Of a stretch of 64,000 nucleotides of DNA, positions 5,906-46,348 are shown one piece after another. The notes below the pieces were generated by a model that was given only the letters and a program-made list of their open reading frames with translations, had not been told where the DNA came from and ran no database searches. Made by a program: the position numbers and the translations under genes. How positions within the stretch are numbered: position 1 is the first letter of the stretch; every line of letters begins with the position of its first letter. This stretch comes from a bacterium (GTDB taxonomy: Bacteria > Armatimonadota > Chthonomonadetes > Chthonomonadales > CAJBBX01), in contig JAJZOL010000206.1 of assembly GCA_021811565.1 (NCBI GenBank), positions 9,105 through 73,104 on the forward strand, read 5' to 3'.

Positions 5906-5979
5906 GTAAAGAGAATTCAGTTGCTGAATAATGGAATTGTGACATGATATGTTGATGCGTACGCTTGGAGAACGATTGT

Positions 5980-11483: not shown

Positions 11484-12572
11484 TTAGCTGATTGGAGTGT
11501 CAACGGTTTTCAATTTAATAGCGTTTAAGATGTTTTCAGCAATTCTGCTTGTCCAGTGATCCAAGGTCATGTTCGCCAGCAAATCGTTTCTGGCGTTGAC
11601 CCCCATTTTTTTCGCCAAGTCCGGTTGATTTATCAGTCGTTGAATGGCGGATCTTAATGCAATTGGATCCCCCGGCGGCACGGTGATTCCGTTTTCCCCA
11701 TCGCGTATTACATCCACCTGTCCGGTGGTTTTCGTCGCGATCACAGCTTTCCCCATGGCCATCGCTTCCAGGATGGTTGTAATTCCCGCTTGGAAATCGT
11801 TCTCATAAAGAGGTACAACTACGAATAGCGATGATGCGTAGAGATCACGTAGCTCGTTATAATCATATCTCCTTGCCGTAACGTTATTCGGCAGTATGCG
11901 TCCTTTAGTTTCATTCCGATGTTTGGACCATGGGCTAGCGGCTGCAAGGCACACCTCCACATTCATATCTTTCACGGCTTCGATTAGGGTGGGATAATCC
12001 CTCCATTCCAATCCGGCACTGCAAATACGGTTGCAAGTTGCACCATTTATGGGGCGATAAAAGCGATGATCGGCGTGAAAGGGTATCAGATGAACTTTGC
12101 CGTCAGGGAATCCCAATGCGGTGATGCAATACTTTTGCTGAACCGAGGAGTAGGTAAATATCGCATCCATTTTATTCTCAAGGAATTTTAAAAACAACCT
12201 CTTTTTCGGCGTGGATGGATGGTGTCCTATCAAAGCATGATATGGGCGTATTCGGCAAAACAAAAAAAGAAAGGCTAAGGGGATGCTTACATTTTCACCG
12301 TTCGAATAGATAGCCGAGTAGTTTTTTCTATGAAGAAACCCTATCATCGCCAGCGCCGCGTCCTTCCCTGCGAATGCGGTTAGGCGCACAGGAATGCTAT
12401 TGCTGTTATCTACCATCGCGTAATCCGCTATGTCGGCATCTAGCGCATGTTGCAAAGCGTAATAATCCATTACAGGATGTTTATCTTTTGCAACTTCATC
12501 CTGGATGTCGCGTTTTATATAACTAGGTATCAACATCAAGATCGACTTCAATTTGTGACCCCGTTCGCTCAA
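11484..12572 (-). CDS. Glycosyltransferase family 4 (GT-B)
   Basis: E-x7-E region YENDFQAGITTILEAMAMGKAVIAT...DGENG. TTG start at 12572, or ATG at 12536. Confidence 0.8.
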   Translation of the reverse strand: MSERGHKLKSILMLIPSYIKRDIQDEVAKDKHPVMDYYALQHALDADIADYAMVDNSNSIPVRLTAFAGKDAALAMIGFLHRKNYSAIYSNGENVSIPLAFLFLFCRIRPYHALIGHHPSTPKKRLFLKFLENKMDAIFTYSSVQQKYCITALGFPDGKVHLIPFHADHRFYRPINGATCNRICSAGLEWRDYPTLIEAVKDMNVEVCLAAASPWSKHRNETKGRILPNNVTARRYDYNELRDLYASSLFVVVPLYENDFQAGITTILEAMAMGKAVIATKTTGQVDVIRDGENGITVPPGDPIALRSAIQRLINQPDLAKKMGVNARNDLLANMTLDHWTSRIAENILNAIKLKTVDTPIS

Positions 12573-13676: not shown

Positions 13677-14677
13677 TGAACGATATTCCCTGTATTATTT
13701 TTCCTTGAAACAGATAATTCGTTCCACATTTTTTTCGAACCGCCGATTTCTTGCGCCATTCCCTGAAGATAACGGAGGTTAAACAAGATACTGCATACGC
13801 CAAGGGAGATATTCCGCAGACCAATATGATCCCAAAGGAGTATATTATATTTCAGGAACCGAAAAAGACCTTTTTCGGCGGGAGGGAAACCAATGCATGA
13901 TCTCGCCAAAAATTTAGTAAGTGCATTCCGTTGGTTGTAATGTTTCCGGGCAAGGTCCATGGAGGTGTTCTCGCCCTTATCGCGAGCCATTTGAACATCT
14001 CTAATTCCATACAGATAAGGGCTTTGTAACCAGGAATCAAAGCTGCGGACAGGACGGTGATAGCCGATCGCTTCAGGACAAAATGCAAAGCGAAGTCCGA
14101 GTTGTTCCAAACGGAAACCGAGTTCCACGTCTTCCTGACGTTTGAATTTCGGATCGAACCCGCCGGATTCCAGCATGTATTTTTTCCTTACGGAGAAATT
14201 GCCGCTGTAAAGGTTATTCGGTCCAACCCCCCAAACCCCGGCGCGGAAATTGGCGTATTGACGTTCAAGCATTCGATGTTCCCAGTCAATCCATACGCTG
14301 AACTTTTCATTGTCGGGAGGGGATTGGGGACCAATCAGAACCAAACGGTCGTCACGCTCGTGATACGCAAGGTGGGATTGCAGGAACGAGGTACAGGGTT
14401 CGATATCATCATCCACAAAAACGAGTAAATCGTTCGGGGCGTGTGTTACACCACAGTTTCTTGCAACGGATGGACCACTATTCTTCTGTTTGAGATATAT
14501 GATTTCGGAATTGGAAATTCGTGTCGAAACCATCTCGTCAGTTCCGTCATTAGAGCCGTCGGATACAATAACGATATCATAGCGATCCTTGGAAAGCGTT
14601 TGCGCACTAAGGGCATCCAAGGTGCGCTCCAAGCTTTGACATCGATTGAATGTAGGTATGATGACGGATAGGTTCAT
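13673..14677 (-). CDS. Glycosyltransferase family 2
   Basis: LSVIIPTFNR..., VSDGSNDGT, VFVDDD (DxD). It overlaps both neighbours by 4 nt. Confidence 0.8.
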   Translation of the reverse strand: MNLSVIIPTFNRCQSLERTLDALSAQTLSKDRYDIVIVSDGSNDGTDEMVSTRISNSEIIYLKQKNSGPSVARNCGVTHAPNDLLVFVDDDIEPCTSFLQSHLAYHERDDRLVLIGPQSPPDNEKFSVWIDWEHRMLERQYANFRAGVWGVGPNNLYSGNFSVRKKYMLESGGFDPKFKRQEDVELGFRLEQLGLRFAFCPEAIGYHRPVRSFDSWLQSPYLYGIRDVQMARDKGENTSMDLARKHYNQRNALTKFLARSCIGFPPAEKGLFRFLKYNILLWDHIGLRNISLGVCSILFNLRYLQGMAQEIGGSKKMWNELSVSRKNNTGNIVQ

Positions 14678-15606
14678 GATGGTGCGTTCTTATCCAAGTA
14701 TAGACGCTCAATTTTATTTATTGGAAACGAAAAACCTAATTTAATTCCATGCAAGACTCCGCGTAAATATAACAACTCATCATGTCGTGTTTTTTTATAG
14801 CATCGAATAAGATATCTGCGAAACATTAAAGAGCAATTTTTGATAATTCTTCGTATAATGCGAGAATCTCCACATCGTAAATGTTTAATTGCAAATCCGG
14901 CGTCACCGCATCCATAGGAGTAATATAATGCGCCCCACTCCTCGGGGGTCCGTCCGCCGAAATGCATAAGTTTAATATTCGGGTTATGCATGACTATCGC
15001 GTTGTTTAATTGTGCGCGATAAATGAAATCGCCTTCTTCAGAGGCTGGCATGGGAGCTCCAGGGCCGAGCAAGGGATCGTAAAACATGACTTTTAATAAA
15101 AGACTTGAACGCATAGCCATGTTGGCACCCATCCCATCCACGTTGCCTTTTGGAAGTCTTAGGAAATTCTTAAATTGAAAACCTGGAATGCAGATTTTAT
15201 GGGAACCATCCTCCTGCATAATAGGTTGGACTTGACCTAACATAATATCCACATCCGAATATTTATCAAATTCGGATGCGATATTTGATAGCCAGTTTTT
15301 GGGTACAAGTGTGTCGTCATCAGTTAAGGCAAATAGGTCTCCGGAAGCGACATGTAATAGCGTATTTAGAGCATTACTTTTTCCTTTAATATCAGAGTGA
15401 ATATACTTATAATGTGCATTTATAGATTCAATATATGATTGAATCTGTATTGATGATGCTTCATCATCGCTTTGGTCTAAAATGATGGTTTCATAATTGG
15501 AATAATCTATTTCGGATATACTTTGTATACATTTAAATAGATCATTAGTTCTATTTCGGGTTGCAATAAGAATTGAAATACGTGTAGTATTATTTGTCGT
15601 CATCAT
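14674..15606 (-). CDS. Glycosyltransferase family 2
   Basis: ISILIATRNR, ILDQSDD, LTDDDT motifs. The gene is AT-rich. Confidence 0.75.
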   Translation of the reverse strand: MMTTNNTTRISILIATRNRTNDLFKCIQSISEIDYSNYETIILDQSDDEASSIQIQSYIESINAHYKYIHSDIKGKSNALNTLLHVASGDLFALTDDDTLVPKNWLSNIASEFDKYSDVDIMLGQVQPIMQEDGSHKICIPGFQFKNFLRLPKGNVDGMGANMAMRSSLLLKVMFYDPLLGPGAPMPASEEGDFIYRAQLNNAIVMHNPNIKLMHFGGRTPEEWGALYYSYGCGDAGFAIKHLRCGDSRIIRRIIKNCSLMFRRYLIRCYKKTRHDELLYLRGVLHGIKLGFSFPINKIERLYLDKNAPS

Positions 15607-15643
15607 ATATTGTATAAATTAAAAAATTATTTGTATATAATTG

Positions 15644-17221
15644 TTATCTATTTTCTTTGCTTGCATTTAATTTAACTTTATCGCTGTTGAATGATGATTG
15701 GTTGTTGGAAATATATGGTAGGGCAGATAATATCCCGAGTTGAATAGATAAGATAAACATTTGACGAGGATTAGTAATTTGTAAATCATATTTTCCATAT
15801 ATATATATCATTAAAATATCTAGTATCGCCAAAATCCCAATAGTTTTCAAATATGGGTCAGAAACACTCGACAATAATTGCGGACCTCTTATAAGTACAA
15901 AAACAATGATCATAAGGAATGCTAAAAAGCCGAAATTCCCAAGTCTCATCCATACCCATAAAACTCCATTGTGTGGCAGATAATCCAAGAAGGATGTGGT
16001 CAATCTAACAAGGGGCACAACCTCAATAAACTCTTTTCCGTAACCATAGCCAAGCCACGGGTTCGTGTCTCGCGTGAACCTAAGATCCGCGCTTTCCGCC
16101 ATGCGATAAAAGTCTGAACTTTCGTCTCTCGCATTTGGATCGCTTTGTGAACGTATGGCGCGTGCAGGCAGAGCCCATGCGCCTTTGGCATTCCACGCAA
16201 CTGGAAGATATACAGCCGAAAGCACGGAGAAGACTATTAGGAAGATGCCTATTTGCTTGCGACTATCCTTGAAATTAACCCATAGTAGGGGGAGTAACGG
16301 TATAAACGCGATGATGAATGCCGCAATACTGGCGCGTCTTTGGTTTCCGATAATTGAAATGATTGCAAATGGAAGAAAGAAAATCGCCCAAGCGCGCATC
16401 TTCTTGTCCACGTTGATCATCATAACAATAAATGACAACAGGACAAGCCTTACAAAGAATAGAGTGTCATCGTGCGCAAGCAAAGATTGATCGCTAGCGG
16501 CGGTGCCAACAACAAAATATGTAATGGTTCCGAACACAGATAATATGCCGGATCCAATAAGAAGCGACCAAAGGACCGCTTTGACATGCTTCACTTCAGT
16601 GATCAGGTTTGCGCCCAAAATGGTTGCCAAAAGAAGATAGGTTTGAGCTCGTACTTCATACAAAGCCATCACTCTATCTCCGCCCGTCGTCAAACCATGG
16701 ACATACCCCCATAATACAAAGGATAGGTATATAAGTATCGGCCAAATAAAGGCCCCGGGACGAAATTTGAACGTTCGGTCGGATATCGACCTTATAAGCC
16801 ATGCGAGTGTGGTCAGGATCATAACGATTTCAGCAGGGGAAAAAGACAACGGCTTCAGTGCGTTAGTTCCATGCATTTGTCCGATTGTACTAAAATTTAT
16901 CCAAAGCTTGATTACACTCGTGGGCACTGTGGAAAGAGTGGTTGTTGCAGGTTCCGCAAAGATGATTGCAGAAACGATTAAGAAATATATTCCAAACCGT
17001 GGGAAATTCCAAATTATTACCGGGATCGTTATAATGGCAAATACTGCCAATGCAAATGCAAACACCCCGGAAACGGTAATATGAGGATCCATAAAAAATA
17101 GTAATGCGGATGTACCGAGAATCACTATAAGTGATGCAATCATGCAAAATAATAAAAGATTGCTTCGTACTCGTTTAGCTTTTATATATTCAGTTGTGGA
17201 TAATAGATTTGAATCGAGCAT
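15644..17221 (-). CDS. O-antigen polymerase/ligase-like (Wzy_C-type) polytopic membrane protein
   Basis: 525 aa with about 12 TM helices and one larger loop (RAIRSQSDPNARDESSDFYR). AT-rich, as is typical of wzy genes. Confidence 0.55.
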   Translation of the reverse strand: MLDSNLLSTTEYIKAKRVRSNLLLFCMIASLIVILGTSALLFFMDPHITVSGVFAFALAVFAIITIPVIIWNFPRFGIYFLIVSAIIFAEPATTTLSTVPTSVIKLWINFSTIGQMHGTNALKPLSFSPAEIVMILTTLAWLIRSISDRTFKFRPGAFIWPILIYLSFVLWGYVHGLTTGGDRVMALYEVRAQTYLLLATILGANLITEVKHVKAVLWSLLIGSGILSVFGTITYFVVGTAASDQSLLAHDDTLFFVRLVLLSFIVMMINVDKKMRAWAIFFLPFAIISIIGNQRRASIAAFIIAFIPLLPLLWVNFKDSRKQIGIFLIVFSVLSAVYLPVAWNAKGAWALPARAIRSQSDPNARDESSDFYRMAESADLRFTRDTNPWLGYGYGKEFIEVVPLVRLTTSFLDYLPHNGVLWVWMRLGNFGFLAFLMIIVFVLIRGPQLLSSVSDPYLKTIGILAILDILMIYIYGKYDLQITNPRQMFILSIQLGILSALPYISNNQSSFNSDKVKLNASKENR

Positions 17222-34780: not shown

Positions 34781-35040
34781 AAGGGAATGACACTTTTGAG
34801 GCTTGAACGGATTACCCTTATTTTTTTCATTAAGTGTATAATGCAAAAAGCCATGCTTGGTAGGATAACCGTGTCAATAGTGAGTCAGGACTTAGACTCC
34901 GAGCGAATCGCCCTAAATACTCCTTTTCTTGCAGGCAACCCATTCCCATACATCTTATGCGGCAAACGGGAAATGTTTTCTTTGTATTCTATCTTTGTGT
35001 TAGATACCCGACCTGGATTTCTTACAAGGGGGGCGGCGAT

Positions 35041-38000
35041 ATGTTCGCAAGAATGAAAACCGTAATTATGCTATTGGGTTTGACTCAAATATTATGGAGT
35101 GGAGTTGCCATGGCGCAAAAAGTGATACCGACGGTTGACCCCAACCAAAAGGTTGGAGTGCGCCCCTATGAGATGGTGTGGGCGAATCGCAAGGAAACGT
35201 TGCCCCCCACTGTCACATTCGATAACCTTGATGGATGGACAATGCGGGTTTCGGGAGGCGCGGTGGCAACTTTCCAACCCAGTTTGGCGCAGACCCTTTA
35301 TGGGCGTCCGGTAGGAGAGTTGCGCTATCATGGTGATGGTGAAAACGGCTCGAATGCTCAAATCCTTATCACGCCTCCAAAACCGATATCAATTCCCGAT
35401 GATGCGGATGCGGTGAATATGTGGATTTATGGAAATCGATGGACATTCGGATCTGCCTTCCCCGATTCTCCATCGATTGAATCCACTCCGCCCGTATCCG
35501 TGACTCTGCTATTACAAGATGCCAATGGCCAATCCGCATCCATTCTCATCGCTCACATAGACTGGCCGCAATGGTTTCTTCTGCACGCATTGGTGCCGAA
35601 AACGCTGAAAAGACCTCTGCAATTAACGGGGTTGGAGATCAATGGCGGATGGCAATCCGGCTGGCGGGATATCTATCTCGAATCGATCAAATTCTACCGA
35701 CAGCAATTTCCACCACTGCATTTTCCTCCATTGCCCAAACGAAATCTGGCTCTTTTCCCCGGTCAGTCCCCTGGAGCCAACACAGGGAAAGGAAAACTGC
35801 CTTTTCCTACGCGCGAACAGACAATATTGCCAGTCAATTTGACGAACATATTTCATGACGATGTAAAAAGAACCGTCGCCAATCGATACGTTTTCGATTA
35901 TAAGGGAAGGGATTGTACGGTAGCCTACGAATTTGATGCAAATAGATGTTTTTCCGGACTTGACGCCAAAGTGGATGGCAAATATCTTGGGGATTTGATG
36001 GACGGAGGCGTGGTTCGACTTCAGGGAAATAACAATCCGACCGCTCAGTTGAAATCCTCAAATCTCAAAGACGGGATTGTGACGGCGGAATATACGGACG
36101 GCACGGTCCTGACCCTTCGCATATGGCAAAAATCCCTCGTAATGGATGTGAGGAATACGACTCGACGCGCAACGGCTCTTGAATTCGGAGAGTTATCAGG
36201 CTTAACTGATCCCCGTGTATTGTATATCCCCTTTTTGACGTACGGTGGAGGCAATGATCCCGGGGTGTTGCTCAGCAAGGCCGGCGGCAAATGGGTGTAC
36301 ACCTCCATATGGCCGGATTGGTATCGTTCCAACGGCAGCCAACTTTCCGCCGCTAACTACACGAATGGTAAAATCGCGCGTATCAATGGCGCGGTGACAT
36401 ACACCCCGTTAACGAATGGCATACTGAATCCCATGTATGAGAGGTTGTTCATCACAGTCTCGCCTTCCTTGGAGGAAACTTTGCCTACAATCGCCAATCC
36501 GGTTGGTTTGCATGCGAAACTGGCGGTAAATCGCTTGTGGCAGGAATCCTGGGGCCCGGATAACTATGCCACGGAAGAGAAGCGCAGTTCAATGTTGCGC
36601 GCATATGGGATCAAACGGCTGATTCAATGCAACCATGAGATATCATGGCGAGACCATGGAGAGAGTTTCACCTTGAGAACCCACGCAGCTCCGATACGAG
36701 GAGGTGCCAAAATTGTGGACGGAGAACCGGTGGTGGGCGGAGGCGACAAGAAACTGGAAGAATATGTTGCACATCAGGAATCGCTTGGATGGCTTAGCGG
36801 TCTGTACTCCAACTATAGTGATTACGCACCTATCAATCGACACTGGACACCGGAGAAGGTGATATTAAATCCGGATGGAACATGGGGAGGGGCTTGGTAC
36901 CGATGTTGGGCGTTGAAACCGTTGGCTGCGGTTCAGTTTGATGCGGAGATCGCTCCGCAGATTGAAAAAAGATACCGATCCAACTCGGCGTATACCGATG
37001 TTATGACTGCGGTACCCCCATGGGGTCGCACCGATTACGATCCTCGCGTTCCAGGAGCTGGCACTTTCGCACAGACTTTTTACGCATACGGCCAACTCTT
37101 GCGAAACGACTCTCGGGTATATCACGGACCGATCTTTTCAGAAGGCACGTATCAGTGTTTTTACGCTGGTTTGCCGGATGGAAATTATGGTCACACATAT
37201 AATAATCGGCCGCTTGCTACGGAGCCATTATTGCCCGTCTTTGACCTTAATCAAATCCATACCAAGGAGTGCGATATCGGTGTAAGTTGGACCACATCCT
37301 ATTGCGATGCGATACCGAATTGGCAAGCGCCTCAAAATATAGACAATGCGATAGATCGCTTCATTCTGACCACCATGGCTTATGGACATATCGGATGGTT
37401 GGTGGAGGAGCAATACGGTATCGAGAGGACGTGCAGGTCTTACTATATGTTGCAACAGGTTCAGGCACGTTACGGACTGAAAAAACCGCTCCGAATTGCT
37501 TATTGGGATGGCTCAAAGTTGGTCGGGGTGTCGAAGGCGGTGGAGGAGGGATTGCCAGCAAGTAGGCGGCAACTCTATGTCGAATATCCGGGAGGGCTTC
37601 GACTCTGGCTGAACGACAGTCCCAATGATTATTGGAAAGTGCGAATCGGCAAGAATATTCACATCCTCCCACCAGCCGGATGGGCGGTGTTTCAGAAAAA
37701 GAGCCGTAGGGGCCCCCTTCTCAGCTTTTCTGAACTCCATGATGGATCCAAGGTGGACTATCTCCATTCCAATGCATACATCTACCAAGACGGAAGGGGG
37801 CGGTGGTATATGACTTCCGATGCGGGATCGAATGGAGCGTTGGCGATTGAGAACAAATCCCGAAACATACTTGGAATCACCCATATAACCGGAACCGGTG
37901 ATTTTATGATCGCACGCCCGTACGAGATGAAGGGGGTGGCGTTGGAATGCAAGACTTACGATGTGAATGGACAACGATTGGAAGACGCCAAATTCAAGGA

Positions 38001-39126
38001 TAGCGGCGATCAGACGTGGATCACGCCGGTACCGAACGCTCTGAAATACGTTCTGCGATTTTCCGGAAAGAGTGCGTGGAGTATCCATCCGGAACATGCC
38101 GAAGTCGTTCCGGGAGGCAAGGTTCGTTTATTGACGATAAACCGAAAAACGTCCCAATGGCATAGCAGCGAGGGAAGCGTTGATAAGGGAGAGCTTGTGA
38201 TTCCGTCTAACGCGAAGATCGGAGACTGGATAGATATTCAAGCTAAATCTGGCGTCGATTTGCGAACGACACGTGTGTTGATTTGTCCTCCGGTGCGATG
38301 GGAGTGGAGTTTCGAAGCCAACCCCAAGGAAACACTGCTGATGCTCACTCCGCAATGGAGACTGACAGGGTTGCACAAGATAAAGATGAGAGTGGTTGTT
38401 ACCACTTCCGAAGGTTGGAATGTATCTCCCGCATATTACTCCTTCTCATCGTTGAACCCTCCGCGCAAACTGCAATTTAGGGTCTCTTCCTCATTGGCGG
38501 CGGGAGAGATTGGACACCTTACGGTAAGCTTGGAAGGGTTGCCGCAAACAATGCAGGAGGACTTTCAACTGGTTCGGGAATATCAAAAAACGAAGATTCA
38601 AAACCTCACCAATATCTCCTACTCATGGGGAATCTGTCTCAGAGGCGGTCAGGAGGAGCCTAACGAGGGGAATACAGGGGCGATATTCGATCCCGGCGAG
38701 GATTTATCCGTTGGAGGCGTTGTCAAACGCGGTATTTTCATGCATCCGCCTTATGCGGAGGGGGTTGGTTATACATGGGCAATCTCCGATCCTATCCTTC
38801 TTCCTTCGAATCCTTGCCAGTTCCACTGTTATGCCGGAATCAGAGATGGAGGGGATCCTAGCGATGGGGTGTGGTTCACCGTATACGTGATCACCGGTAA
38901 GGATAAGAGGGTGAAAATTGGAGAGATTACCGCAGAGCAGCATGAATGGAAGGAGTTTCAAGGCGACCTAAGCCCGTTCGAGGGGAAAAAAATACGTATC
39001 ATGCTCAAAGGCGATGTGGGGCCAAATAACAACTCCACTGCAGATTGGGGGGCTTGGGGTGAGCCGGAGATTCGCTTGTCCAAACCCTCCGTGGAAACAA
39101 TCATTGCACGCTCAAATGCGGAATAA
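35041..39126 (+). CDS. Very large secreted protein of unknown function (possibly glycan-active; C-terminal NPCBM-like beta-sandwich)
   Basis: The track ORF begins at 34957, but ATG 35041 follows AAGGGGGG and yields signal peptide MFARMKTVIMLLGLTQILWSGVAMA-Q. No catalytic family recognised. The last ~190 aa (GIFMHPPYAEGVGYTW...VWFTVYV...WGAWGEPEI) resemble carbohydrate-binding sandwich modules. Confidence 0.6.
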   Translation: MFARMKTVIMLLGLTQILWSGVAMAQKVIPTVDPNQKVGVRPYEMVWANRKETLPPTVTFDNLDGWTMRVSGGAVATFQPSLAQTLYGRPVGELRYHGDGENGSNAQILITPPKPISIPDDADAVNMWIYGNRWTFGSAFPDSPSIESTPPVSVTLLLQDANGQSASILIAHIDWPQWFLLHALVPKTLKRPLQLTGLEINGGWQSGWRDIYLESIKFYRQQFPPLHFPPLPKRNLALFPGQSPGANTGKGKLPFPTREQTILPVNLTNIFHDDVKRTVANRYVFDYKGRDCTVAYEFDANRCFSGLDAKVDGKYLGDLMDGGVVRLQGNNNPTAQLKSSNLKDGIVTAEYTDGTVLTLRIWQKSLVMDVRNTTRRATALEFGELSGLTDPRVLYIPFLTYGGGNDPGVLLSKAGGKWVYTSIWPDWYRSNGSQLSAANYTNGKIARINGAVTYTPLTNGILNPMYERLFITVSPSLEETLPTIANPVGLHAKLAVNRLWQESWGPDNYATEEKRSSMLRAYGIKRLIQCNHEISWRDHGESFTLRTHAAPIRGGAKIVDGEPVVGGGDKKLEEYVAHQESLGWLSGLYSNYSDYAPINRHWTPEKVILNPDGTWGGAWYRCWALKPLAAVQFDAEIAPQIEKRYRSNSAYTDVMTAVPPWGRTDYDPRVPGAGTFAQTFYAYGQLLRNDSRVYHGPIFSEGTYQCFYAGLPDGNYGHTYNNRPLATEPLLPVFDLNQIHTKECDIGVSWTTSYCDAIPNWQAPQNIDNAIDRFILTTMAYGHIGWLVEEQYGIERTCRSYYMLQQVQARYGLKKPLRIAYWDGSKLVGVSKAVEEGLPASRRQLYVEYPGGLRLWLNDSPNDYWKVRIGKNIHILPPAGWAVFQKKSRRGPLLSFSELHDGSKVDYLHSNAYIYQDGRGRWYMTSDAGSNGALAIENKSRNILGITHITGTGDFMIARPYEMKGVALECKTYDVNGQRLEDAKFKDSGDQTWITPVPNALKYVLRFSGKSAWSIHPEHAEVVPGGKVRLLTINRKTSQWHSSEGSVDKGELVIPSNAKIGDWIDIQAKSGVDLRTTRVLICPPVRWEWSFEANPKETLLMLTPQWRLTGLHKIKMRVVVTTSEGWNVSPAYYSFSSLNPPRKLQFRVSSSLAAGEIGHLTVSLEGLPQTMQEDFQLVREYQKTKIQNLTNISYSWGICLRGGQEEPNEGNTGAIFDPGEDLSVGGVVKRGIFMHPPYAEGVGYTWAISDPILLPSNPCQFHCYAGIRDGGDPSDGVWFTVYVITGKDKRVKIGEITAEQHEWKEFQGDLSPFEGKKIRIMLKGDVGPNNNSTADWGAWGEPEIRLSKPSVETIIARSNAE

Positions 39127-39318
39127 AGGGATGGATGAATGGTGTGATTTATAGCGAAGCTCATAGGAGGACAATTAAATCTTTTCCATGAAATTTAAAC
39201 TAACGGGCTATGAGTGCGTTTCGACGTTATGGATGGCAGGAAAAGTTTTCCTGACTTCGAATAACCAATTATGTTTGATCATTCGCCCTTCCGGAACGAA
39301 TGGGTTTATTCAAAATGA

Positions 39319-39347
39319 TTGACTATGATTTTTTTTTGCGTTAAAAT
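39319..39347 (+). promoter_or_regulatory. Near-consensus sigma-70 promoter (TTGACT-17 nt-TAAAAT) driving the three-gene cassette
   Basis: TTGACT at 39319-39324, a 17-nt spacer containing a T9 run, TAAAAT at 39342-39347. Confidence 0.45.
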
Positions 39348-39361
39348 ATCTGTGTTAAATC

Positions 39362-40129
39362 GTGTTTCCGCATTTCATTAGCTTCAAAGATATATCTTAT
39401 AGAGAGATATTCACAATGGGTTATGAGTGGCATCAATCCAAGCCGTGCGAATTATCCAGAGGTTATAAGCGCGATCCGCTCGTTGAGGAACAGATTTGCT
39501 TATGGATCAAGCTCTCCAAAAAGGAGTTGCTCTATAACGCCACGATAAAGGATAGGGATAATGGCAATTATCCTCGCATGGAGACTCTCATACATTTCAC
39601 GCGACGCGCGATAAAAAACGGAGACAATGCCGCCAAGGATATACTGCTGACGGTGGTGTTTAATAGAGGCAAGATCATTGTTTGGAATAGCCTCAAACAT
39701 TACAACATCTACAATCATGCTCAACTTGAGGATGTTGCGTATGATGTCCTCGACGATTTGATTGTAAATGTGATGGATTTAACGGAGAAGCATGAGTTTT
39801 GGGAGGTGAATTTCATATCCTGTGTGCAGAGGCTGATAACAACCAAAATCAACTCAAGCTTTAAAAGGTCGAAAAAGGAGATTCATCCGGATCAGTATGA
39901 TGACGATGAGGGAAATGAGAGTTTGGAGGATGGGTTGAGGGATGATAGAAATCCCGAGGATATTGCGTTAACGAAAATTCAATATGATAAGCTTACCTAC
40001 CCTCACACCTTGATAGTCTTTTTGCTTGAAGAGGGTTATACGCAGGAGGAGATCGCGACAATAATTGGATGTTCCTCCAGAACAATCAGAAATCATATCA
40101 AATCGATTCGGACATTGATGCAAAAATAA
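39362..40129 (+). CDS. Divergent sigma-70/ECF-like protein (region-2-like segment plus region-4 HTH) with an extended N-terminus
   Basis: LEDVAYDVLDDLIVNV...FWEVNFISCVQRLITTKINSSFKRSKKE resembles sigma region 2. The C-terminal LLEEGYTQEEIATIIGCSSRTIRNHIKSIRTLM is a region-4-type HTH. Start is GTG 39362 or ATG 39416. Confidence 0.5.
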   Translation: MFPHFISFKDISYREIFTMGYEWHQSKPCELSRGYKRDPLVEEQICLWIKLSKKELLYNATIKDRDNGNYPRMETLIHFTRRAIKNGDNAAKDILLTVVFNRGKIIVWNSLKHYNIYNHAQLEDVAYDVLDDLIVNVMDLTEKHEFWEVNFISCVQRLITTKINSSFKRSKKEIHPDQYDDDEGNESLEDGLRDDRNPEDIALTKIQYDKLTYPHTLIVFLLEEGYTQEEIATIIGCSSRTIRNHIKSIRTLMQK

Positions 40130-40286
40130 GTGTTTTAGACTCGAAACAGGAGAAAACCGGTTTGGATCATCAAACCTTTTTTAATAGCCGTCAATTGCCT
40201 CATTCAACTTTTATTCGGAGCCTTTTGGACTGGCTGTTTATCCTATGTTGAATGATATTGCAAACACCCGGTAGGATGGAAAAATA

Positions 40287-40925
40287 ATGACGGACATCAT
40301 GGATATCATAATAGAGATAGAGAGTGAATCAAAGCCTGGCGAACGCATTGATCTATTGCGATGGATCGAAAAATATCCCTCGCAAAGGGAGGAGATATTA
40401 GAGTACGCCATGCTTAAGCACTATGAATCCATTTTGGAAACGGAACCTGTGGACGATCCACAGTACGACTCCTATTCCGTCCGAGCGAACCAAATTTTGC
40501 AAAATGCTCTTGGAAAAAGGGAGGAGCAAGTAACGTTTGACAATATATCGCTGTTCTCGTTGATTCGTCGAAAACACAAACGACCGGAGGATGTGGCGAG
40601 ATCCTTGAATGTTGGGTTTTCCGTTCTTGCGAAGTTGGATCACGGTTTGTTGGAAGTGTCCAGTATCCCGCGTCGTTTTTGGAGATTGCTCGCAAGGGAG
40701 ATTAATGAAACGGAGGATATACTTAGATCCCATTTTATTCAAATACCCAATGTGTTATTAATGGCAGGACACTGGATCGGTTTTTACTCCCCGTCCAAAC
40801 CGAGTTCGAAATCCCTGGTCACCTTCTCCTCGGCGATTGAAGAGTGCGAAGATATGTCGAACGAAGAGAAATCGAATTGGCTGAAAATAGTGTCCGAGGA
40901 TACCTCGATTAAAGATCATGAATAG
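40287..40925 (+). CDS. Hypothetical protein with a central XRE-like helix-turn-helix (candidate ImmR-like partner)
   Basis: LFSLIRRKHKRPEDVARSLNVGFSVLAKLDHGLLEVSSIP fits the XRE HTH pattern. No TM helix. The stop overlaps the next ATG by 8 nt (ATGAATAG). Confidence 0.4.
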   Translation: MTDIMDIIIEIESESKPGERIDLLRWIEKYPSQREEILEYAMLKHYESILETEPVDDPQYDSYSVRANQILQNALGKREEQVTFDNISLFSLIRRKHKRPEDVARSLNVGFSVLAKLDHGLLEVSSIPRRFWRLLAREINETEDILRSHFIQIPNVLLMAGHWIGFYSPSKPSSKSLVTFSSAIEECEDMSNEEKSNWLKIVSEDTSIKDHE

Positions 40926-43900
40926 ATGGCGTCTCATCCGCCAGCGTGCGCGTGAGTATCGGGAAACGGTTCTATCCTCCAATTCGGGACTTTCCTCCTC
41001 TTCTCTTCCTTCCTCGGAAGATATTATCAGCGCCGCAATGGAACTTGCGGGCTACTCCAAATACGCTCTTCCCGCCACTGATCCCCTCTTATACGGCGCC
41101 ATTTCCGTTCTTGACAGAAGAGCGCAATGCATCTGGTACTCCAAAGACGTAAATCCCTTGATGCTTCCGTTTTATCTCGCACATGAATTGGCGCATCTTC
41201 ATCTTCGGAGGCACACCACCATGTGCTTGCCCGAATACATTCCCTCCTTGCCTCATCCAAAAGCCCCATCGACGGTATGGAGCGAGAGGCTTGGTTACTC
41301 TCTCAAGGAGAGACGGGAGATGGAGGCGAGTGTGTTTGCCATTGAGTTCCTCCTGCCATTACCCGTGGTGCGCGATTTATTCATGAACGGCATGGACGCC
41401 GAAGGGATCAGCGAACGAGTCAGGATCGCTCCCGAATTGATACACACTCAGTTGATAGAGGCTTCTCTGCCGGACATCCCCACGGAAACACCTGCATTGA
41501 AACGCAAAAAACGATTTGACGCGTCTCAGCGGCGTGCGATTGCATGCGAGGATGGTGCTACTTTAGTGCTGGCGGGGCCTGGCACCGGTAAAACGACCTC
41601 GTTAATCTCCCATGCGGAATATCTGATGAGCAATGGAGTGCATCCGGAAAACATACTGATACTGACTTTCAGCAATAATGCAACGGAGGAGCTTTTTCAT
41701 CGCGTGGAGGAGACCTACCCAGAGGCGGCGGAGCGGATGTGGATTGGGACGTTTCACTCCTTTGGTCTTGAACTCATCAGACGATTTGGGAACCTGATCA
41801 ATTTCTCTCAAAACGCGACGCTGATTGATGAAGTTGACGCAATACCCCTCATGGAGCGATATCTTGAAAGGTTGGACCTCTCCCCACATTTCATATGCAG
41901 TCTAAAAGACCCCATCAGGTATTTTAGAAACCTCTATTACACCATTTCCAGATGCAAAGACGAACTGTTATATCCGGACAGCCTTCATGATTATCCCTCC
42001 AAAACCGAGGCGGAGTTCAATGAGACAGAGAAGATAGATCGAGTTCTTAAATTTGCACAGGTCTATGAAGAGTGGGATCGTATCCTCCGAGAGGAGGGGC
42101 GTATGGATTTCGGCGATTTGATCGCGCAGCCGGTGAAAATCCTTCGATCCTTCCCAGAGGTGCTTTTTCAAGTACGGTCAGAATTTCCCCATATTCTCGT
42201 GGATGAGTATCAGGATATCAATCGAGCGACTACGGTGTTGATTGAATTGCTTGCCGGTGATGGTCGAGGATTATGGGCTGTCGGGGACAACCGACAGGCT
42301 ATTTATGGGTTTAGAGGAGCGTACGGAAAGAATTTTCAGGAGTTTTCCCATCGATATCCAAACGCGAAAGTGAAGAATCTAAGAAGAAATTATCGCTCAC
42401 TTGCAGCTATTGTGGAGTTGCTCAACCAAATTGCAAATCATGGGAATGACGGGGTGAAACGGGATAAGTGGCTTCCTCATCGAACAAGCGAACAGGCGAC
42501 AATCCGTAATATCGTTGCGAATGAAAAGAACGATCAACTTGAAGCGATGGTTCAAATAATAAACGAGGACCTGAACCAGGGGGTTTCATATTCCTCTCAT
42601 GTTATTTTATGCAGGACATATGACCAAGCGAAAACGGTATCGGAATACATGGAAGCCTGTGGAGTTCCGACTCTGTTTCTTGGCAGTATAACGGATCATA
42701 ACAGTGTAAAGGATATGCTTGCTATATTAAGCTATTGCAGGAATGGCGATGCGGTCTCACAAGATCGCATCTTGCAATTTGCGGAGTATGTAGGGAAAGG
42801 GGAGCAATCAGAGAGTTCTAAAGATGAAACGGATACGAGACTATTTGAGAGCCACATGGACGCGCTGCACCGCATCGATGATCCCTTCAAGTTGCTCACA
42901 CACTATCTTTACACTCTTTCCAGTTACTTACGTCGCCTGATGCTGGAAGATAGCGTTGAGGCGTTGCAGGAGAGGATTGCACTCAGCCAGTTTCTCTTTC
43001 TTTTGCATTCACATGTCAATCGGAATATCTATGGGAATTCCACTCGAATTGGTGATTTTCTGGATTGGATGGCATTGATGGAGAACTTGGATATGGGCAG
43101 TAAAATCAATGCAACCGAACATATGGATTATCTAAACGCAGTACGTGTTATGACTCTCCACAAGTCGAAAGGCTTGGAATTTCCATCCGTTATCATTCCT
43201 TTTTTGGAGGAGATGAAGACTAGGAGCCGAGGCACCCTGCAATTACTGATGACATTTGATGATCCGGATTCAGCCCAGGAGGAAAAGCGGTTATATTTTG
43301 TGGGGGTGAGCCGCGCCATGGATCGTCTTACTCTATTGCATACCGATTCGAGGCAATCCGATAATGAATTTATTGACCTCATAAATCATTTCATAACACC
43401 CATCGTTTATTGCCATGATGCAAATATCGACCATCGTCTGCATTTCGACAAGGAGCCATTGATTTCAGCGGAAACCTTACCCGTTTATAAACCGGAGGTG
43501 ACTTGGCTCGGATTGCAGCAATTTGAAAAATGTCCGAGAAGATACCATTATTTGGCCAAATTTGGCTTTCCAACCATTTTCAATCGAAGGCATTACGGAT
43601 GGTTTCAGCATCTTATCATGTCGCGGATACGTGATATGCGGGCGAAAAGTTTAGATGGTGAGGGGATATCTCTTGAAGAGGATATCCTCAAATACGAAGA
43701 GGAGTGGAATGCACCGGGAGTGCCAGACACCCAGTATTCCATGAGACTGAAGAGGTATGGAATGAGGTTGTTGGTAAATTTCAGGGATTTGACCCTCCGC
43801 GAAAAACCTATCCCCCAGACTAACATCGTCCTCTCGCTTGATTACGGAAAGATCAGAATACCCATGGATTACGTCTCGGAATGCGAGGGGGGCTATTGGA

Positions 43901-44193
43901 TCATATACAAATTTTTGTTGGATCCGATTAGGAAAGAGGATAAAAACTCTCCGGAAATCGCGCTGCTAAGGAAAGCGTTGATGGAAACCCTGCCGGAAAC
44001 AGAATTTGAAATTGCGCTATATTCGCTATATGACAATGTAACGATGAAAGTGGACGTGGACACTCCCCGGGAACTGCGTAGAATTGAAAAATATAGGAGC
44101 GTCATAAAAAGATTGGCGGAGGGTTGCTCCTCGGCCAACCCTGGCTATGAATGTCGAATATGCTCGTTTAGATTTATTTGCTCCAAGAAATGA
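40918..44193 (+). CDS. Fusion of an ImmA/IrrE (Peptidase_M78) metallopeptidase, an SF1 UvrD-like helicase and a Cas4/AddB-type PD-(D/E)XK Fe-S nuclease
   Basis: HELAH at aa 89-93 (nt 41182-41196) plus EMEASVFAIEFLLP. Walker A AGPGTGKT (aa 219-226), TFHSF, VDEYQD, VGDNRQAIYGFRGA, NYRS, TLHKSKGLEF, VGVSRA. C872 (FEKCPRRYHY) plus C1079-x2-C1082-x5-C1088. Confidence 0.8.
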   Translation: MNRWRLIRQRAREYRETVLSSNSGLSSSSLPSSEDIISAAMELAGYSKYALPATDPLLYGAISVLDRRAQCIWYSKDVNPLMLPFYLAHELAHLHLRRHTTMCLPEYIPSLPHPKAPSTVWSERLGYSLKERREMEASVFAIEFLLPLPVVRDLFMNGMDAEGISERVRIAPELIHTQLIEASLPDIPTETPALKRKKRFDASQRRAIACEDGATLVLAGPGTGKTTSLISHAEYLMSNGVHPENILILTFSNNATEELFHRVEETYPEAAERMWIGTFHSFGLELIRRFGNLINFSQNATLIDEVDAIPLMERYLERLDLSPHFICSLKDPIRYFRNLYYTISRCKDELLYPDSLHDYPSKTEAEFNETEKIDRVLKFAQVYEEWDRILREEGRMDFGDLIAQPVKILRSFPEVLFQVRSEFPHILVDEYQDINRATTVLIELLAGDGRGLWAVGDNRQAIYGFRGAYGKNFQEFSHRYPNAKVKNLRRNYRSLAAIVELLNQIANHGNDGVKRDKWLPHRTSEQATIRNIVANEKNDQLEAMVQIINEDLNQGVSYSSHVILCRTYDQAKTVSEYMEACGVPTLFLGSITDHNSVKDMLAILSYCRNGDAVSQDRILQFAEYVGKGEQSESSKDETDTRLFESHMDALHRIDDPFKLLTHYLYTLSSYLRRLMLEDSVEALQERIALSQFLFLLHSHVNRNIYGNSTRIGDFLDWMALMENLDMGSKINATEHMDYLNAVRVMTLHKSKGLEFPSVIIPFLEEMKTRSRGTLQLLMTFDDPDSAQEEKRLYFVGVSRAMDRLTLLHTDSRQSDNEFIDLINHFITPIVYCHDANIDHRLHFDKEPLISAETLPVYKPEVTWLGLQQFEKCPRRYHYLAKFGFPTIFNRRHYGWFQHLIMSRIRDMRAKSLDGEGISLEEDILKYEEEWNAPGVPDTQYSMRLKRYGMRLLVNFRDLTLREKPIPQTNIVLSLDYGKIRIPMDYVSECEGGYWIIYKFLLDPIRKEDKNSPEIALLRKALMETLPETEFEIALYSLYDNVTMKVDVDTPRELRRIEKYRSVIKRLAEGCSSANPGYECRICSFRFICSKK

Positions 44194-44295
44194 GGCACCT
44201 ACTTCTAAACGGAGGGACGTCAACATATGTCAAACCTATTTGAAGACAATTAAAATCCGTAAAAATAGCGATAATCGCATTTTAGCTATATAGTC

Positions 44296-44382
44296 AGGTA
44301 ATTGCTAAATTCGATTTCCATATATTTCGCCGAACGTGTAATGAGCGATAATAGCCACATTTCCTGAATTTTGCAATTACCT
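44296..44382. repeat. Copy B of the ~85-bp inverted-repeat-bounded element (inverted relative to copy A)
   Basis: Its reverse complement reads AGGTAATTGCAAAATTCAGGAAATGTGGCTATTATCGCTCATT..., nearly identical to copy A. It is flanked by two partial copies (44261-44295 and 44391-44432). Confidence 0.8.
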
Positions 44383-44577
44383 CTATAAACATGAGAAATG
44401 AGCGATCATAGCGTCAGGTGTTACATTTGCATTCCCCTCCAAGGATATCCCCACATCTCTTTTGGTACATATTCCTCTTATTTTAATTTTCACCAAAAAT
44501 ATCGTCACATCAATAAAGATATTTAACATAAAAGCCGAAAATCCATTTAGAGATGGTATTGATGGGGAGGCGAAGAG

Positions 44578-45693
44578 ATGGATTGCGACACGAGAAAGTG
44601 CGTTGAATGCCCATGCTTGAATTGGAAGACGATAGATCCAAGATACAATGTGTTACTGACACCAATGGATCGAATCTCGGAATCCGAACTGAAGCGATCC
44701 CTTGCGAAATCGAAAGTCCCCTTCATATCGCTCGGTTGCTCCGTGTTGCTGGATTTTCCGCTAGAGCGAATGAGTGAATTGAAATCCGCCTTATGGACCG
44801 GCATACCTTCCTTGCTTCATTCACGAATCAAAGGGATATTTCTCAGTGATGCTAATCGGCGTCAATTCACGTTTCGTGATTTTCTTCAGGCGGAATCTCT
44901 CCCAGTCTTTTTCGAACAGGCAGAAGTTGAATGGGCTAGGCGAATACTGAGCATAGGATCTCTGTACAGCGTGTTTCATCCCATTTTGGACGCCAGAACA
45001 ATGAAGATCGTTGCATACGAGGCGTTGGTGAGGGCGCATCATCCCTACACAGGCGACGTGATATCCGCTGGCGAACTCCTGCACGCTTGTGGAAGACTGA
45101 ACCTTATGGATCAGTTGGATGGAATGGCGCGTCAGTGCGCCATTCGATCGGCAATTCAAGTGGATCAGTCCGATGCTCTGATATTCATCAACTTCCTCCC
45201 GAACGCCATTGGCGATCCTGATAGCGCTCTGAAATGCACCTTTGAGGATGCGAAGGAGATAGGATTCAAACCTGAAAGATTGGTCTTCGAGGCGGTGGAA
45301 GCGGAGAGCGCCATGAGCTTGGAGATGTTGCGTGACATTGCAAGGTACATCCATGCGATGGGGGCTAAGTTCGCCTTGGACAATCTTGGCAGAGGTCGCA
45401 TCGCTGTCCAATTGATTGAAAAATTGAACCCGGATTACGCCAAAATGGATGCAAATTTGATAGCCGTAGCGGTGACTAATGCAAATGCACGTCTGGAGAT
45501 GGATCGAATCTGCATGTCGGCGCAAGGTGTTGGAGCCACATTGATAGGGGAGGGCATCGAAACAATCGATCAGATGCGGGTCGCACTTCGCGCCGGCATC
45601 TCTCTGATGCAGGGGTTTCTCTTCTCCATTCCGTGCAATCCGGAGGATGCGGCAAAACCAATAAGGGGGTATCTTCAGCGACAGATCGCGTGA
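44578..45693 (+). CDS. EAL-domain c-di-GMP phosphodiesterase with a Cys-rich N-terminal domain of unknown function
   Basis: EAL motifs YEALVRA, INFLPN, FEAVE, ALDNLG, AKMD, GEGIE, QGFLF. The N-terminus is MDCDTRKCVECPC. GGGGAGG precedes the ATG. Confidence 0.8.
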   Translation: MDCDTRKCVECPCLNWKTIDPRYNVLLTPMDRISESELKRSLAKSKVPFISLGCSVLLDFPLERMSELKSALWTGIPSLLHSRIKGIFLSDANRRQFTFRDFLQAESLPVFFEQAEVEWARRILSIGSLYSVFHPILDARTMKIVAYEALVRAHHPYTGDVISAGELLHACGRLNLMDQLDGMARQCAIRSAIQVDQSDALIFINFLPNAIGDPDSALKCTFEDAKEIGFKPERLVFEAVEAESAMSLEMLRDIARYIHAMGAKFALDNLGRGRIAVQLIEKLNPDYAKMDANLIAVAVTNANARLEMDRICMSAQGVGATLIGEGIETIDQMRVALRAGISLMQGFLFSIPCNPEDAAKPIRGYLQRQIA

Positions 45694-45736: not shown

Positions 45737-46348
45737 CTACGGTTCGAAGTAGAATGAGGTCCTTCGCCTTAATTCCAGCCTGGCTCGGCTTAATCTGGAT
45801 TTGATGGTTCCCACAGGCACATGCAGTATCCTCGCTATCTCATCCAAAGTTTGCCCGTCAATATGATGCAAAAGAATAACCGTTCGGTATTCGTCCGGAA
45901 GGGTGTCTATGGCTTGCAGAAGCACTTGCGCACGTTCCGTAGTGTGAAGTATCTTCATGGGCTCCAAGGCGGGATCGGCTTGAAGGAATTGAATTGGGGA
46001 AGGTGATCCATCCTCGCCTTCCTTGTCAAGTTCCATGATCTCTGGAGAATTCATCCGCTTGTTAAGATGATCGAGGCATAGATTTGTGGCGATTCGACGT
46101 ATCCAGAACGGCAAGGAATCACGATTGCGCAGACGGGGAAGAGATTTGTAGATACGCACAAAGGTTTCTTGGGTTATGTCTGCGGCATCCTGTTCGTTCC
46201 GGATCATACGGTAAATATAGTTGTAGACCCTTTTATAGTGAATGTCCATCAACCATTCGAACAGCTGGTCATTGGAAAGATTCTCTCGCTGTTCGATATT
46301 TGATGGGAACGGATAGGATAACGCGCCAGGAAAAGAGCCTTTGTTCAA
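45737..46348 (-). CDS. ECF-type RNA polymerase sigma factor
   Basis: Region 2 DAADITQETFVRIY...FWIRRIATNLCLDHLNKR. Region 4 LPDEYRTVILLHHIDGQTLDEIARILHVPVGTIKSRLSRAR. Confidence 0.9.
   Translation of the reverse strand: MNKGSFPGALSYPFPSNIEQRENLSNDQLFEWLMDIHYKRVYNYIYRMIRNEQDAADITQETFVRIYKSLPRLRNRDSLPFWIRRIATNLCLDHLNKRMNSPEIMELDKEGEDGSPSPIQFLQADPALEPMKILHTTERAQVLLQAIDTLPDEYRTVILLHHIDGQTLDEIARILHVPVGTIKSRLSRARLELRRRTSFYFEP

Follow-up and report, generated by a model that had tools for sequence, protein, structure and literature searches.

The window analysed here, 64,000 nucleotides of a contig from an Armatimonadota bacterium (GenBank assembly GCA_021811565.1, contig JAJZOL010000206.1, positions 9,105 to 73,104 of the forward strand), carries three consecutive genes on one strand, designated A, B and C. 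Gene C encodes a protein in which a predicted zinc peptidase is joined to a DNA helicase and an iron-sulphur (Fe-S) domain. Judging from sequence comparison, C is the third gene of a widespread cassette that consists of a sigma factor, an XRE repressor and the protease-helicase. The genes, and the parts of gene C, are the following.

39416–40129, + strand: gene A, a divergent sigma factor of the extracytoplasmic function (ECF) type, 237 aa, with an N-terminal extension of about 65 aa
40287–40925, + strand: gene B, a divergent XRE-type helix-turn-helix (HTH) protein, 212 aa, the predicted M78 substrate (CapH/DdrO/ImmR analogue)
40918–44193, + strand: gene C, an open reading frame (ORF) with an ATG start, 1091 aa
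40918–41487, + strand: gene C, aa 1–190, CapP/IrrE-like M78 Zn-peptidase with an HTH-like helical motif (HELAH encoded at 41182–41196)
41515–43422, + strand: gene C, aa ~200–835, UvrD/PcrA-type helicase core of superfamily 1A (SF1A), from Pfam, motifs and Foldseek
43495–44193, + strand: gene C, aa 860–1091 plus stop, AdnA/AddB/Cas4-like Fe-S domain of the PD-(D/E)XK fold with a degenerate active site
43897–43929, + strand: motif III region of the Fe-S domain
43531, 44152, 44161 and 44179, + strand: Cys codons of the Fe-S cluster

An earlier note on this DNA had described C as a fusion of three catalytic modules, and every motif that it quoted is present where it was placed within the ORF at 40918–44193. 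Pfam recovers all three segments, with matches to Peptidase_M78, the UvrD helicase and PDDEXK_1 above the curated cut-offs, and the triple architecture is conserved in 119 full-length relatives, the set to which all conservation counts for C refer. Within this set there is little or no variation in the HExxH motif, E134, the helicase motifs or the four cysteines. The count of modules has to be revised: because the catalytic D-x-K of the nuclease fold is replaced, two catalytic modules and a nuclease-fold Fe-S domain can be read, not three. The AlphaFold2 model of C, built from 27 homologues, is confident (predicted local distance difference test (pLDDT) 82, predicted template modelling score 0.82), and its best Foldseek matches are UvrD, PcrA and Rep (E 1e-31 to 1e-28), followed by AddA, AdnA/AdnB and RecB. 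This whole-model search is dominated by the helicase and uninformative on the protease domain, for which a sequence profile was used instead. The upstream start codon of C is favoured because M1, R8 and A11 are conserved across 25 homologues. One public annotation of the identical gene (P0001 versus P0121; window positions 40918–41220) places the start 101 codons late; the resulting 990-aa record loses the first 101 residues, including HExxH and the PF06114 match, and another record has the full 1091 aa.

The N-terminal domain displays the hallmarks of the M78 family. Peptidase_M78 (PF06114) matches residues 66–174 with 27.1 bits (cut-off 22), the HELAH motif occupies aa 89–93, and E134 is the glutamate ligand within the E..A..FA..LL.P-type block EMEASVFAIEFLLP at aa 133–146; H89, E90, H93 and E134 are invariant. 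Both blocks had been recognized in the earlier note, and its analogy to ImmA and IrrE is upheld by a profile of the N-terminal region, which matches CapP (7t5t, E 5.9e-7) and IrrE (3dte, E 7e-5) in the PDB. The top match of that profile, the 'CAP repeat' 8vd6, was discarded as a designed repeat protein with a short HTH-like stretch, no stretch being individually significant. The peptidase region extends to about aa 190, and from about aa 200 the sequence belongs to the Q-motif/Walker A region of the helicase; neither Pfam nor the AlphaFold2 model has at this place a GAF-like regulatory domain, which in the IrrE/CapP subfamily follows the peptidase and HTH-like motif. A search of 1.84 billion representative proteins with the N-terminal 201 aa yielded 334 clusters at E ≤1e-3 and 149 at E ≤1e-10; since most of the full-length matches are 1000–1300 aa long, the protease domain is essentially specific to the fusion. 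No homologue of this domain was found in phage genomes.

The helicase core comprises a UvrD-helicase domain (PF00580, residues 202–481, E 1e-63) and UvrD_C (PF13361, residues 487–622, E 1e-29). The complete SF1A motif set listed in the earlier note is present, namely AGPGTGKT, TFHSF, VDEYQD, VGDNRQAIYGFRGA, NYRS, TLHKSKGLEF and VGVSRA, and together with the UvrD/PcrA fold matches (E ~1e-31) it places the protein in the SF1A UvrD/PcrA/Rep group, which is characterized by motifs Q, I, Ia and II to VI and by the 1A/1B/2A/2B fold. C scores too low to count as an equivalog of PcrA, UvrD or Rep (294 bits versus a cut-off of 911 in NCBIfam), and its NCBIfam scores are far under the equivalog cut-offs for PcrA, UvrD and AddA.

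In the C-terminal domain, the PD-(D/E)XK fold and the four-cysteine pattern proposed in the earlier note are both found, and the catalytic (D/E)xK is not. PDDEXK_1 (PF12705) matches residues 866–1088 (32.8 bits, cut-off 22), C872 and the C1079-x2-C1082-x5-C1088 cluster are invariant or nearly so, and the best PDB match for a profile of the last 235 aa is mycobacterial AdnA (6ppu_A, E 2.4e-8). The AdnA segment VVV-D-L-K-TGK, the Asp of which is D934, the residue mutated to Ala in PDB entries named AdnA(D934A), aligns onto vvv-R-x-R-tgk in the family. In the window, motif III reads W-I-I-Y-K-F-L-L-D, with Y997-K998-F999-L1000 opposite the D-L-K of AdnA. Among the relatives, the motif III Asp position is occupied by R in 83, K in 9, Q in 9 and D in 7, and the Lys position by R in 64 and K in 15; a single sampled relative, L007/P0076 (the L numbers denote individual cassette loci), retains D-Y-K. 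The alignment thus depicts an Fe-S domain of the RecB/AddB/Cas4 fold that lacks the (D/E)xK by which these nucleases are defined; this nuclease domain looks catalytically dead. The Fe-S cluster of AddB-type domains is required for DNA-end binding, and under the simplest reading of this conservation pattern, the domain would have been kept for DNA binding, not cutting.

Gene B, the 3' end of which overlaps the start of C by 8 nt, has no Pfam match in the window, and a single-sequence search finds only three close relatives, a profile being needed for more. Individual members of the B family match HTH_31 (8e-8), HTH_26, HTH_3 or Xre-like-HTH; the family profile has ClgR XRE-HTH as its best PDB match (E 0.0029), UniRef names one homologue XRE family, and some homologues are labelled DUF2384. 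The AlphaFold2 model of B consists of a five-helix HTH domain (aa 88–152, pLDDT >90), a disordered linker (155–172) and C-terminal helices (180–209). In a fold comparison, the model comes closest to the HTH domain (6rnz_A, probability 0.99, TM score 0.73) of DdrO, the substrate of IrrE. By profile and model, B is a divergent, DdrO-like XRE HTH protein. The linker carries a family-conserved (F/Y)(K/R)(A/S)xxxP motif. An adjacent XRE partner is a feature of the M78 family, and gene B lies directly upstream of C in all cassette loci.

On profile evidence, gene A is a divergent ECF-type sigma factor. Its start at ATG 39416 agrees with the 237-aa gene calls in relatives, and Sigma70_ECF (PF07638) matches aa 65–236 with 30.1 bits (cut-off 21.1). 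The family profile covers the full length of the ECF sigma factors SigL (6dv9_F, E 2.3e-8) and sigma-E (1or7, E 2e-7), Sigma70_r4_2 is detected in 22 of 27 family members, and there is a weak NCBIfam match to the type III-E sigma factor (E 0.002). ECF sigma factors combine sigma-2 and sigma-4 regions with a cognate −35/−10 promoter and are often autoregulated; a promoter with the look of a cognate one is present in relatives and was not found in the window lineage. Three further elements flank this gene.

39319–39347, + strand: TTGACT-17-TAAAAT, a sigma-70-like promoter upstream of gene A, the best consensus match (10/12) in a scan of the + strand from 39100 to 44700
39388–39410, + strand: the palindromic stretch AGATATATCT (ATATCT-N7-AGATAT) just before the start codon of A, a candidate operator or 5' untranslated region element
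40159–40182, + strand: a terminator-like hairpin, GGTTTGgatcatCAAACC (hairpin 40159–40176), with a T-run, after gene A

The promoter is fully conserved in the window, L092 and L002, and the hairpin stem is preserved in the latter two. The palindromic stretch is 100% conserved in three genomes, with diverged flanks.

In a species-level genome scan, hidden Markov models of A and B recovered about 27 loci with A, B and C in this order on a single strand. This order recurs around C homologues of only 27–35% identity in unrelated genomes, and more than 100 clusters that align over the full length at about 30% identity have the same three Pfam domains and lengths of 1100–1300 aa. The cassette is present in Acidobacteria, Chloroflexi, Alpha-, Beta- and Gammaproteobacteria and Verrucomicrobia, with hosts that include Nitrosomonas, Methylococcaceae, Collimonas, Sphingomonas, Pseudomonas, Aeromonas, Caulobacter, Phenylobacterium, Mesorhizobium and Oleiharenicola, and it is carried on nine plasmids, among them Xanthomonas pXCV183. 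The description of C as self-contained in the earlier note does not hold, given that B and A lie upstream in a conserved order. No second SF1 or RecB-like gene was found in the cassette at any locus examined.

The absence of a named system with such a fusion, also remarked upon in the earlier note, is corroborated by our searches. PADLOC yields only generic GajB/helicase matches for C, and, since PADLOC v2 gives no meaningful match for A, B or a neighbouring 1389-aa ORF, the cassette is not a PADLOC-listed system. No description of an M78-UvrD-Fe-S fusion or of a helicase-fused CapP was found in the full-text-searchable literature, outside which most subscription journals lie, and a published table of Bub regulators does not mention a helicase.

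Bil or Bub cargo lies directly downstream of the cassette in 20 of 29 assessable loci, a figure that is not a census because the sample comprises the best 80 of more than 578 matches in a pattern-limited scan. The cargo is of the following kinds.

10 loci, downstream of C, co-directional: BilABCD (PADLOC BilA 7e-52, BilC 2.5e-68, BilD 9e-169)
5 loci, downstream of C, co-directional: type I Bub (Multi_ubiq+Prok-E2_E, Prok-JAB+ThiF, DUF6527)
4 loci, downstream of C: a BubAB-like gene and DUF6791-ThiF
L091 (Aquincola tertiaricarbonis plasmid B), 12281–12610: a BilA-like remnant, with a promoter-like motif before it at 12199

The single BilA-like gene after the cassette in L091 looks like a decayed Bil operon. 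The BubAB-like gene followed by DUF6791-ThiF occurs in L017, L023, L025 and L070 (at ~13.3–15.2 kb in the last three) and may be an E2-E1 fusion resembling type II Bub; the ThiF gene of L017 runs on the other strand.

A promoter-like motif, TTTCCGGTT-N13/14-CGATTA, occurs in the short spacer that separates the stop codon of C from bilA or bubA. A position weight matrix (PWM) seeded only from sites downstream of C was run over both strands of each whole locus (about 20 kb). Its two top matches include, in 15 of 19 cargo-linked loci, a second site on the same strand that lies either upstream of gene A or within the 3' end of that gene, about 130–200 nt before B. The sites score 18–25, compared with a mean of 14.8 and a 95th percentile of 18.4 for the maxima of shuffled sequences. 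The paired sites co-vary from locus to locus: both read TTTCCGGGT/CGATCAA in L015, CCGATT/CGACTT in L090, and TTACCGG in L017, L070, L023 and L025. Such locus-specific variants are as expected if a sigma factor encoded at the locus recognizes both promoters. Taken together, the linkage to separate effector operons and the common promoter motif point to regulation.

We consider that C probably, if not securely, serves as the sensor-protease of a three-gene transcription switch made up of the ECF-like sigma factor A, the XRE HTH protein B, and C with its M78, UvrD and Fe-S domains. In such a switch, the SF1A motor and the AdnA/AddB-like Fe-S domain would load on DNA ends or on junctions of single-stranded DNA (ssDNA) and double-stranded DNA and translocate, and DNA engagement would activate the fused CapP/IrrE-like Zn-peptidase, the helicase standing in place of the GAF sensor domain. 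This activation step would parallel that of CapP and PprI/IrrE by ssDNA. The peptidase would then cleave B, probably in the disordered linker at aa ~155–175, and loss of B would raise transcription, either by freeing sigma factor A, if B is an anti-sigma factor, or by de-repressing promoters, if B is a DNA-bound repressor. In most relatives, the targets would be the cassette itself and the Bil or Bub operon downstream, both preceded by TTTCCGGTT-N13/14-CGATTA. The chain as a whole is a motor-driven nucleic-acid alarm, in which an SF1 helicase and a dead Fe-S end-binding domain trigger proteolysis of an XRE-type inhibitor that releases an ECF sigma factor to switch on Bil or Bub immunity, or a chromosomal regulon in a stand-alone clade of cassettes to which the window belongs. 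We offer this fuller chain tentatively, at somewhat less than even odds.

The same logic, a nucleic-acid sensor and a protease the substrate of which controls an ECF-like sigma factor, operates in the type III-E CRISPR Craspase (Csx29 protease, Csx30 and an RpoE-like sigma factor). The proteins are unrelated (caspase-like versus M78; Cas7-11 versus an SF1 helicase), and the resemblance would be functional. The closest relationship appears to be with CapH/CapP, an XRE HTH protein and an M78 (PF06114) Zn-peptidase encoded beside immune operons and described by the Corbett lab. CapP cleaves CapH only when bound to ssDNA (Lau et al., bioRxiv 10.1101/2022.04.27.489752), 24 CBASS (cyclic oligonucleotide-based antiphage signalling) systems encode capH, capP and a sigma factor (same source), and in literature surveys CapH and CapP are present with 15% of Bil-type and 31% of Bub operons. 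The cassette shares with these loci the association with Bil and Bub and, in some of them, the sigma factor, and the N-terminal profile of C matches 7t5t including HExxH and the E..A..FA..LLMP block. In contrast to CapP, the GAF-like domain is replaced in C by about 900 aa of UvrD helicase and Fe-S nuclease-fold domain, and B has N- and C-terminal helical domains that CapH lacks. The sigma-XRE-protease order is co-directional with the cargo, whereas capH/capP in the surveyed Bil-type (6C) operons are upstream and divergently oriented; a conserved ECF-type promoter motif replaces simple repressor-operator logic; and the window copy has no cargo.

The analogy extends to IrrE (PprI)/DdrO of Deinococcus and ImmA/ImmR of ICEBs1, where DNA damage is the signal for an XRE repressor to be cut by an M78 protease, as is predicted here from sequence. 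PprI/IrrE senses ssDNA directly (PMC10904395), the best fold match of B is the DdrO HTH, and IrrE matches the N-terminal profile of C (E 7e-5), although those systems have no helicase, Fe-S domain or sigma factor. AdnAB, AddAB and RecBCD share with C an SF1A motor followed by a RecB-fold domain with a C-x(n)-C-x2-C-x5-C cluster; no PDB entry matches the C-terminal domain better than AdnA, and AddA, AdnA/B and RecB are among the whole-model fold matches. Unlike them, C is a single chain without a partner subunit, with the catalytic D-x-K replaced and an N-terminal protease added, and its NCBIfam scores are far under their family cut-offs. Gabija GajB and other defence UvrD helicases resemble the UvrD core of C, which gives strong PADLOC matches to GajB and RTasHel; these matches cover the helicase core only, and, unlike in Gabija, the neighbours give no GajA (OLD/TOPRIM) match in PADLOC. 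We read the cassette as a protease-repressor switch of the CapH/CapP type (IrrE/DdrO-like) in which an SF1 helicase and an Fe-S domain take the place of the GAF sensor and a dedicated sigma factor has been added.

Several observations weigh against this reading. In a neighbour-joining tree of 28 C proteins, the window clusters with L002, L092, L004, L005, L007 and L020, and none of this clade has a ubiquitin-like (Ubl) operon. There is no defence operon in the 64 kb, the gene downstream of the cassette encodes an EAL-domain protein, and the PWM finds no match near the window cassette, the best score of 15.3 belonging to an unrelated site at background level. Gene A of the window is preceded by a sigma-70-type promoter, and the candidate cleavage motif in the linker of B, (F/Y)(K/R)(A/S)xxxP, lacks its basic residue in the window lineage (FYSPSKP). 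In addition, the motif II Asp of the C-terminal domain is retained in 107 of 119 relatives, a pattern that leaves some chance of an atypical nuclease activity.

The surroundings of the window copy resemble those of a housekeeping locus. In this lineage, the cassette is flanked by Sua5 and the EAL/succinate dehydrogenase genes, and synteny persists in relatives whose C proteins are as little as 35% identical. No tRNA genes are present in the window, no integrase was found among the Pfam-scanned neighbours, and GC content dips only mildly. The suggestion in the earlier note of a defence island therefore has to be divided: it does not apply to the window copy, given its Sua5/EAL context, and it does apply to many distant relatives, which lie beside Bil, Bub, CRISPR or BREX genes. 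The 1389-aa ORF (34957–39126, + strand), an insertion between Sua5 and the cassette that is confined to the window lineage, was considered as a fourth component and rejected: it begins with a signal peptide, its sequence matches nothing in Pfam, NCBIfam, PADLOC or the PDB, and it is absent from L004, which keeps Sua5-A-B-C. The product is probably an unrelated secreted protein.

Directly downstream of the cassette, the EAL-domain gene (44578–45693, + strand) lies beside a canonical ECF sigma factor gene (Sigma70_r2 and r4_2; 45737–46348, − strand), an arrangement conserved in L002 and L092. In the spacer between C and the EAL gene, AATGAGCGAT(A/C)ATAGC occurs three times in direct orientation, and there is also an inverted repeat of 17 nt that is 94% complementary (44263–44412 and 44296–44382); L092 and L002 both retain one of the repeat copies along with the region ahead of the EAL start. 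These repeats may be binding sites for a regulator of the EAL gene. Elsewhere in the window, a segment at about 14000–17000 has a GC content of 0.39–0.40, compared with about 0.47–0.49 in the remainder.

The neighbourhoods of other cassettes are varied. One copy (L009) lies beside a CRISPR-Cas3 locus, and another, from an uncultured bacterium (L014, 13809–18621), adjoins a PglX-like methylase fragment, HicB and BrxL in a BREX-type island. On the conjugative plasmid pXCV183 of Xanthomonas (L090), a SEC-C protein and a pair of an AAA ATPase and an S8 peptidase, possibly a further defence pair, are encoded just upstream of the cassette-Bil block (3721–6982), near an integrase. In two loci of the stand-alone clade, L005 (13625–14467) and L007 (996–1847), HEAT_2-repeat proteins of some 280 aa occur near the cassette at differing positions and orientations, with no counterpart in the window.

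The earlier note had favoured a self-contained sense-and-degrade defence effector, in which the protease of C senses and the helicase-nuclease destroys invading DNA. All three folds are detected, the helicase motifs are intact, some relatives are found in defence islands beside CRISPR, BREX, Bil or Abi_C, and both the D-Y-K of L007/P0076 and the mostly conserved motif II Asp agree with such a function. The degradation part of the proposal fails, however, on the missing (D/E)xK: about 90% of the family, and the window copy too, have other residues there. Moreover, C is always accompanied by A and B, separate effector operons are linked to it and share a promoter motif, the window context is syntenic and housekeeping-like, and there are neither homologues in phage genomes nor a PADLOC system match. 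We regard this effector model as decidedly unlikely, and a sense-and-signal transcription switch fits the data better. Slightly less doubtful, and still improbable in our estimate, is that C is a housekeeping repair motor, a single-chain end-processing or fork-clearing helicase akin to AddA, AdnA or UvrD, autoregulated by its M78/XRE pair and mediating a RecA-independent damage response in the stand-alone clade. Vertical inheritance beside Sua5 in relatives down to 35% identity, with no mobility genes or tRNAs nearby, speaks for this model, as do the UvrD/PcrA affinity of the helicase core, the AddA/AdnA/RecB-like layout and the precedent of IrrE/DdrO as a damage regulon. Against it stand the patchy distribution across phyla and plasmids in only about 150–330 clusters, the lack of a partner subunit as in AddAB or AdnAB, the degeneration of the nuclease that resection needs, and the NCBIfam scores far under the PcrA, UvrD and AddA equivalog cut-offs.

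It is also conceivable, at very long odds, that the cassette is a COG2856-XRE toxin-antitoxin or abortive-infection-type module in which the protease or the helicase ATPase is toxic and B is the antitoxin. COG2856/XRE pairs have been predicted to be toxin-antitoxin systems (PMC3632139), ImmA has been counted as toxin-antitoxin-like cargo of Tn7-like elements, and DUF2384, the label of some B homologues, is a domain of the Xre-antitoxin type. Nevertheless, the characterized M78/XRE pairs (ImmA/ImmR, IrrE/DdrO and CapP/CapH) act as regulators, and a toxin-antitoxin module would leave unexplained the sigma factor and the common promoter before the cargo operons.

Databases at present annotate these genes as UvrD-helicase domain proteins and nothing more, and in at least one record a late start call truncates the N-terminal protease. 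The significance of the cassette is greater at the level of the family than for the orphan copy in the window. The conservation pattern suggests how a RecB-fold Fe-S nuclease can persist as a non-catalytic DNA-binding module. If the transcription switch proposed here is correct, the cassette would be a concrete example of an ATP-driven DNA motor gating a protease, and the nucleic-acid alarm would follow a logic analogous to that of SOS, IrrE and Craspase while being gated by a helicase and independent of RecA. How Bil and Bub operons are switched on is only partly explained by CapH/CapP, CapW and CapK/CapS, and a CapP joined to a helicase, with a dedicated sigma factor and a recognizable promoter, would then be a fourth, mechanistically distinct type of controller of Bil and Bub immunity.

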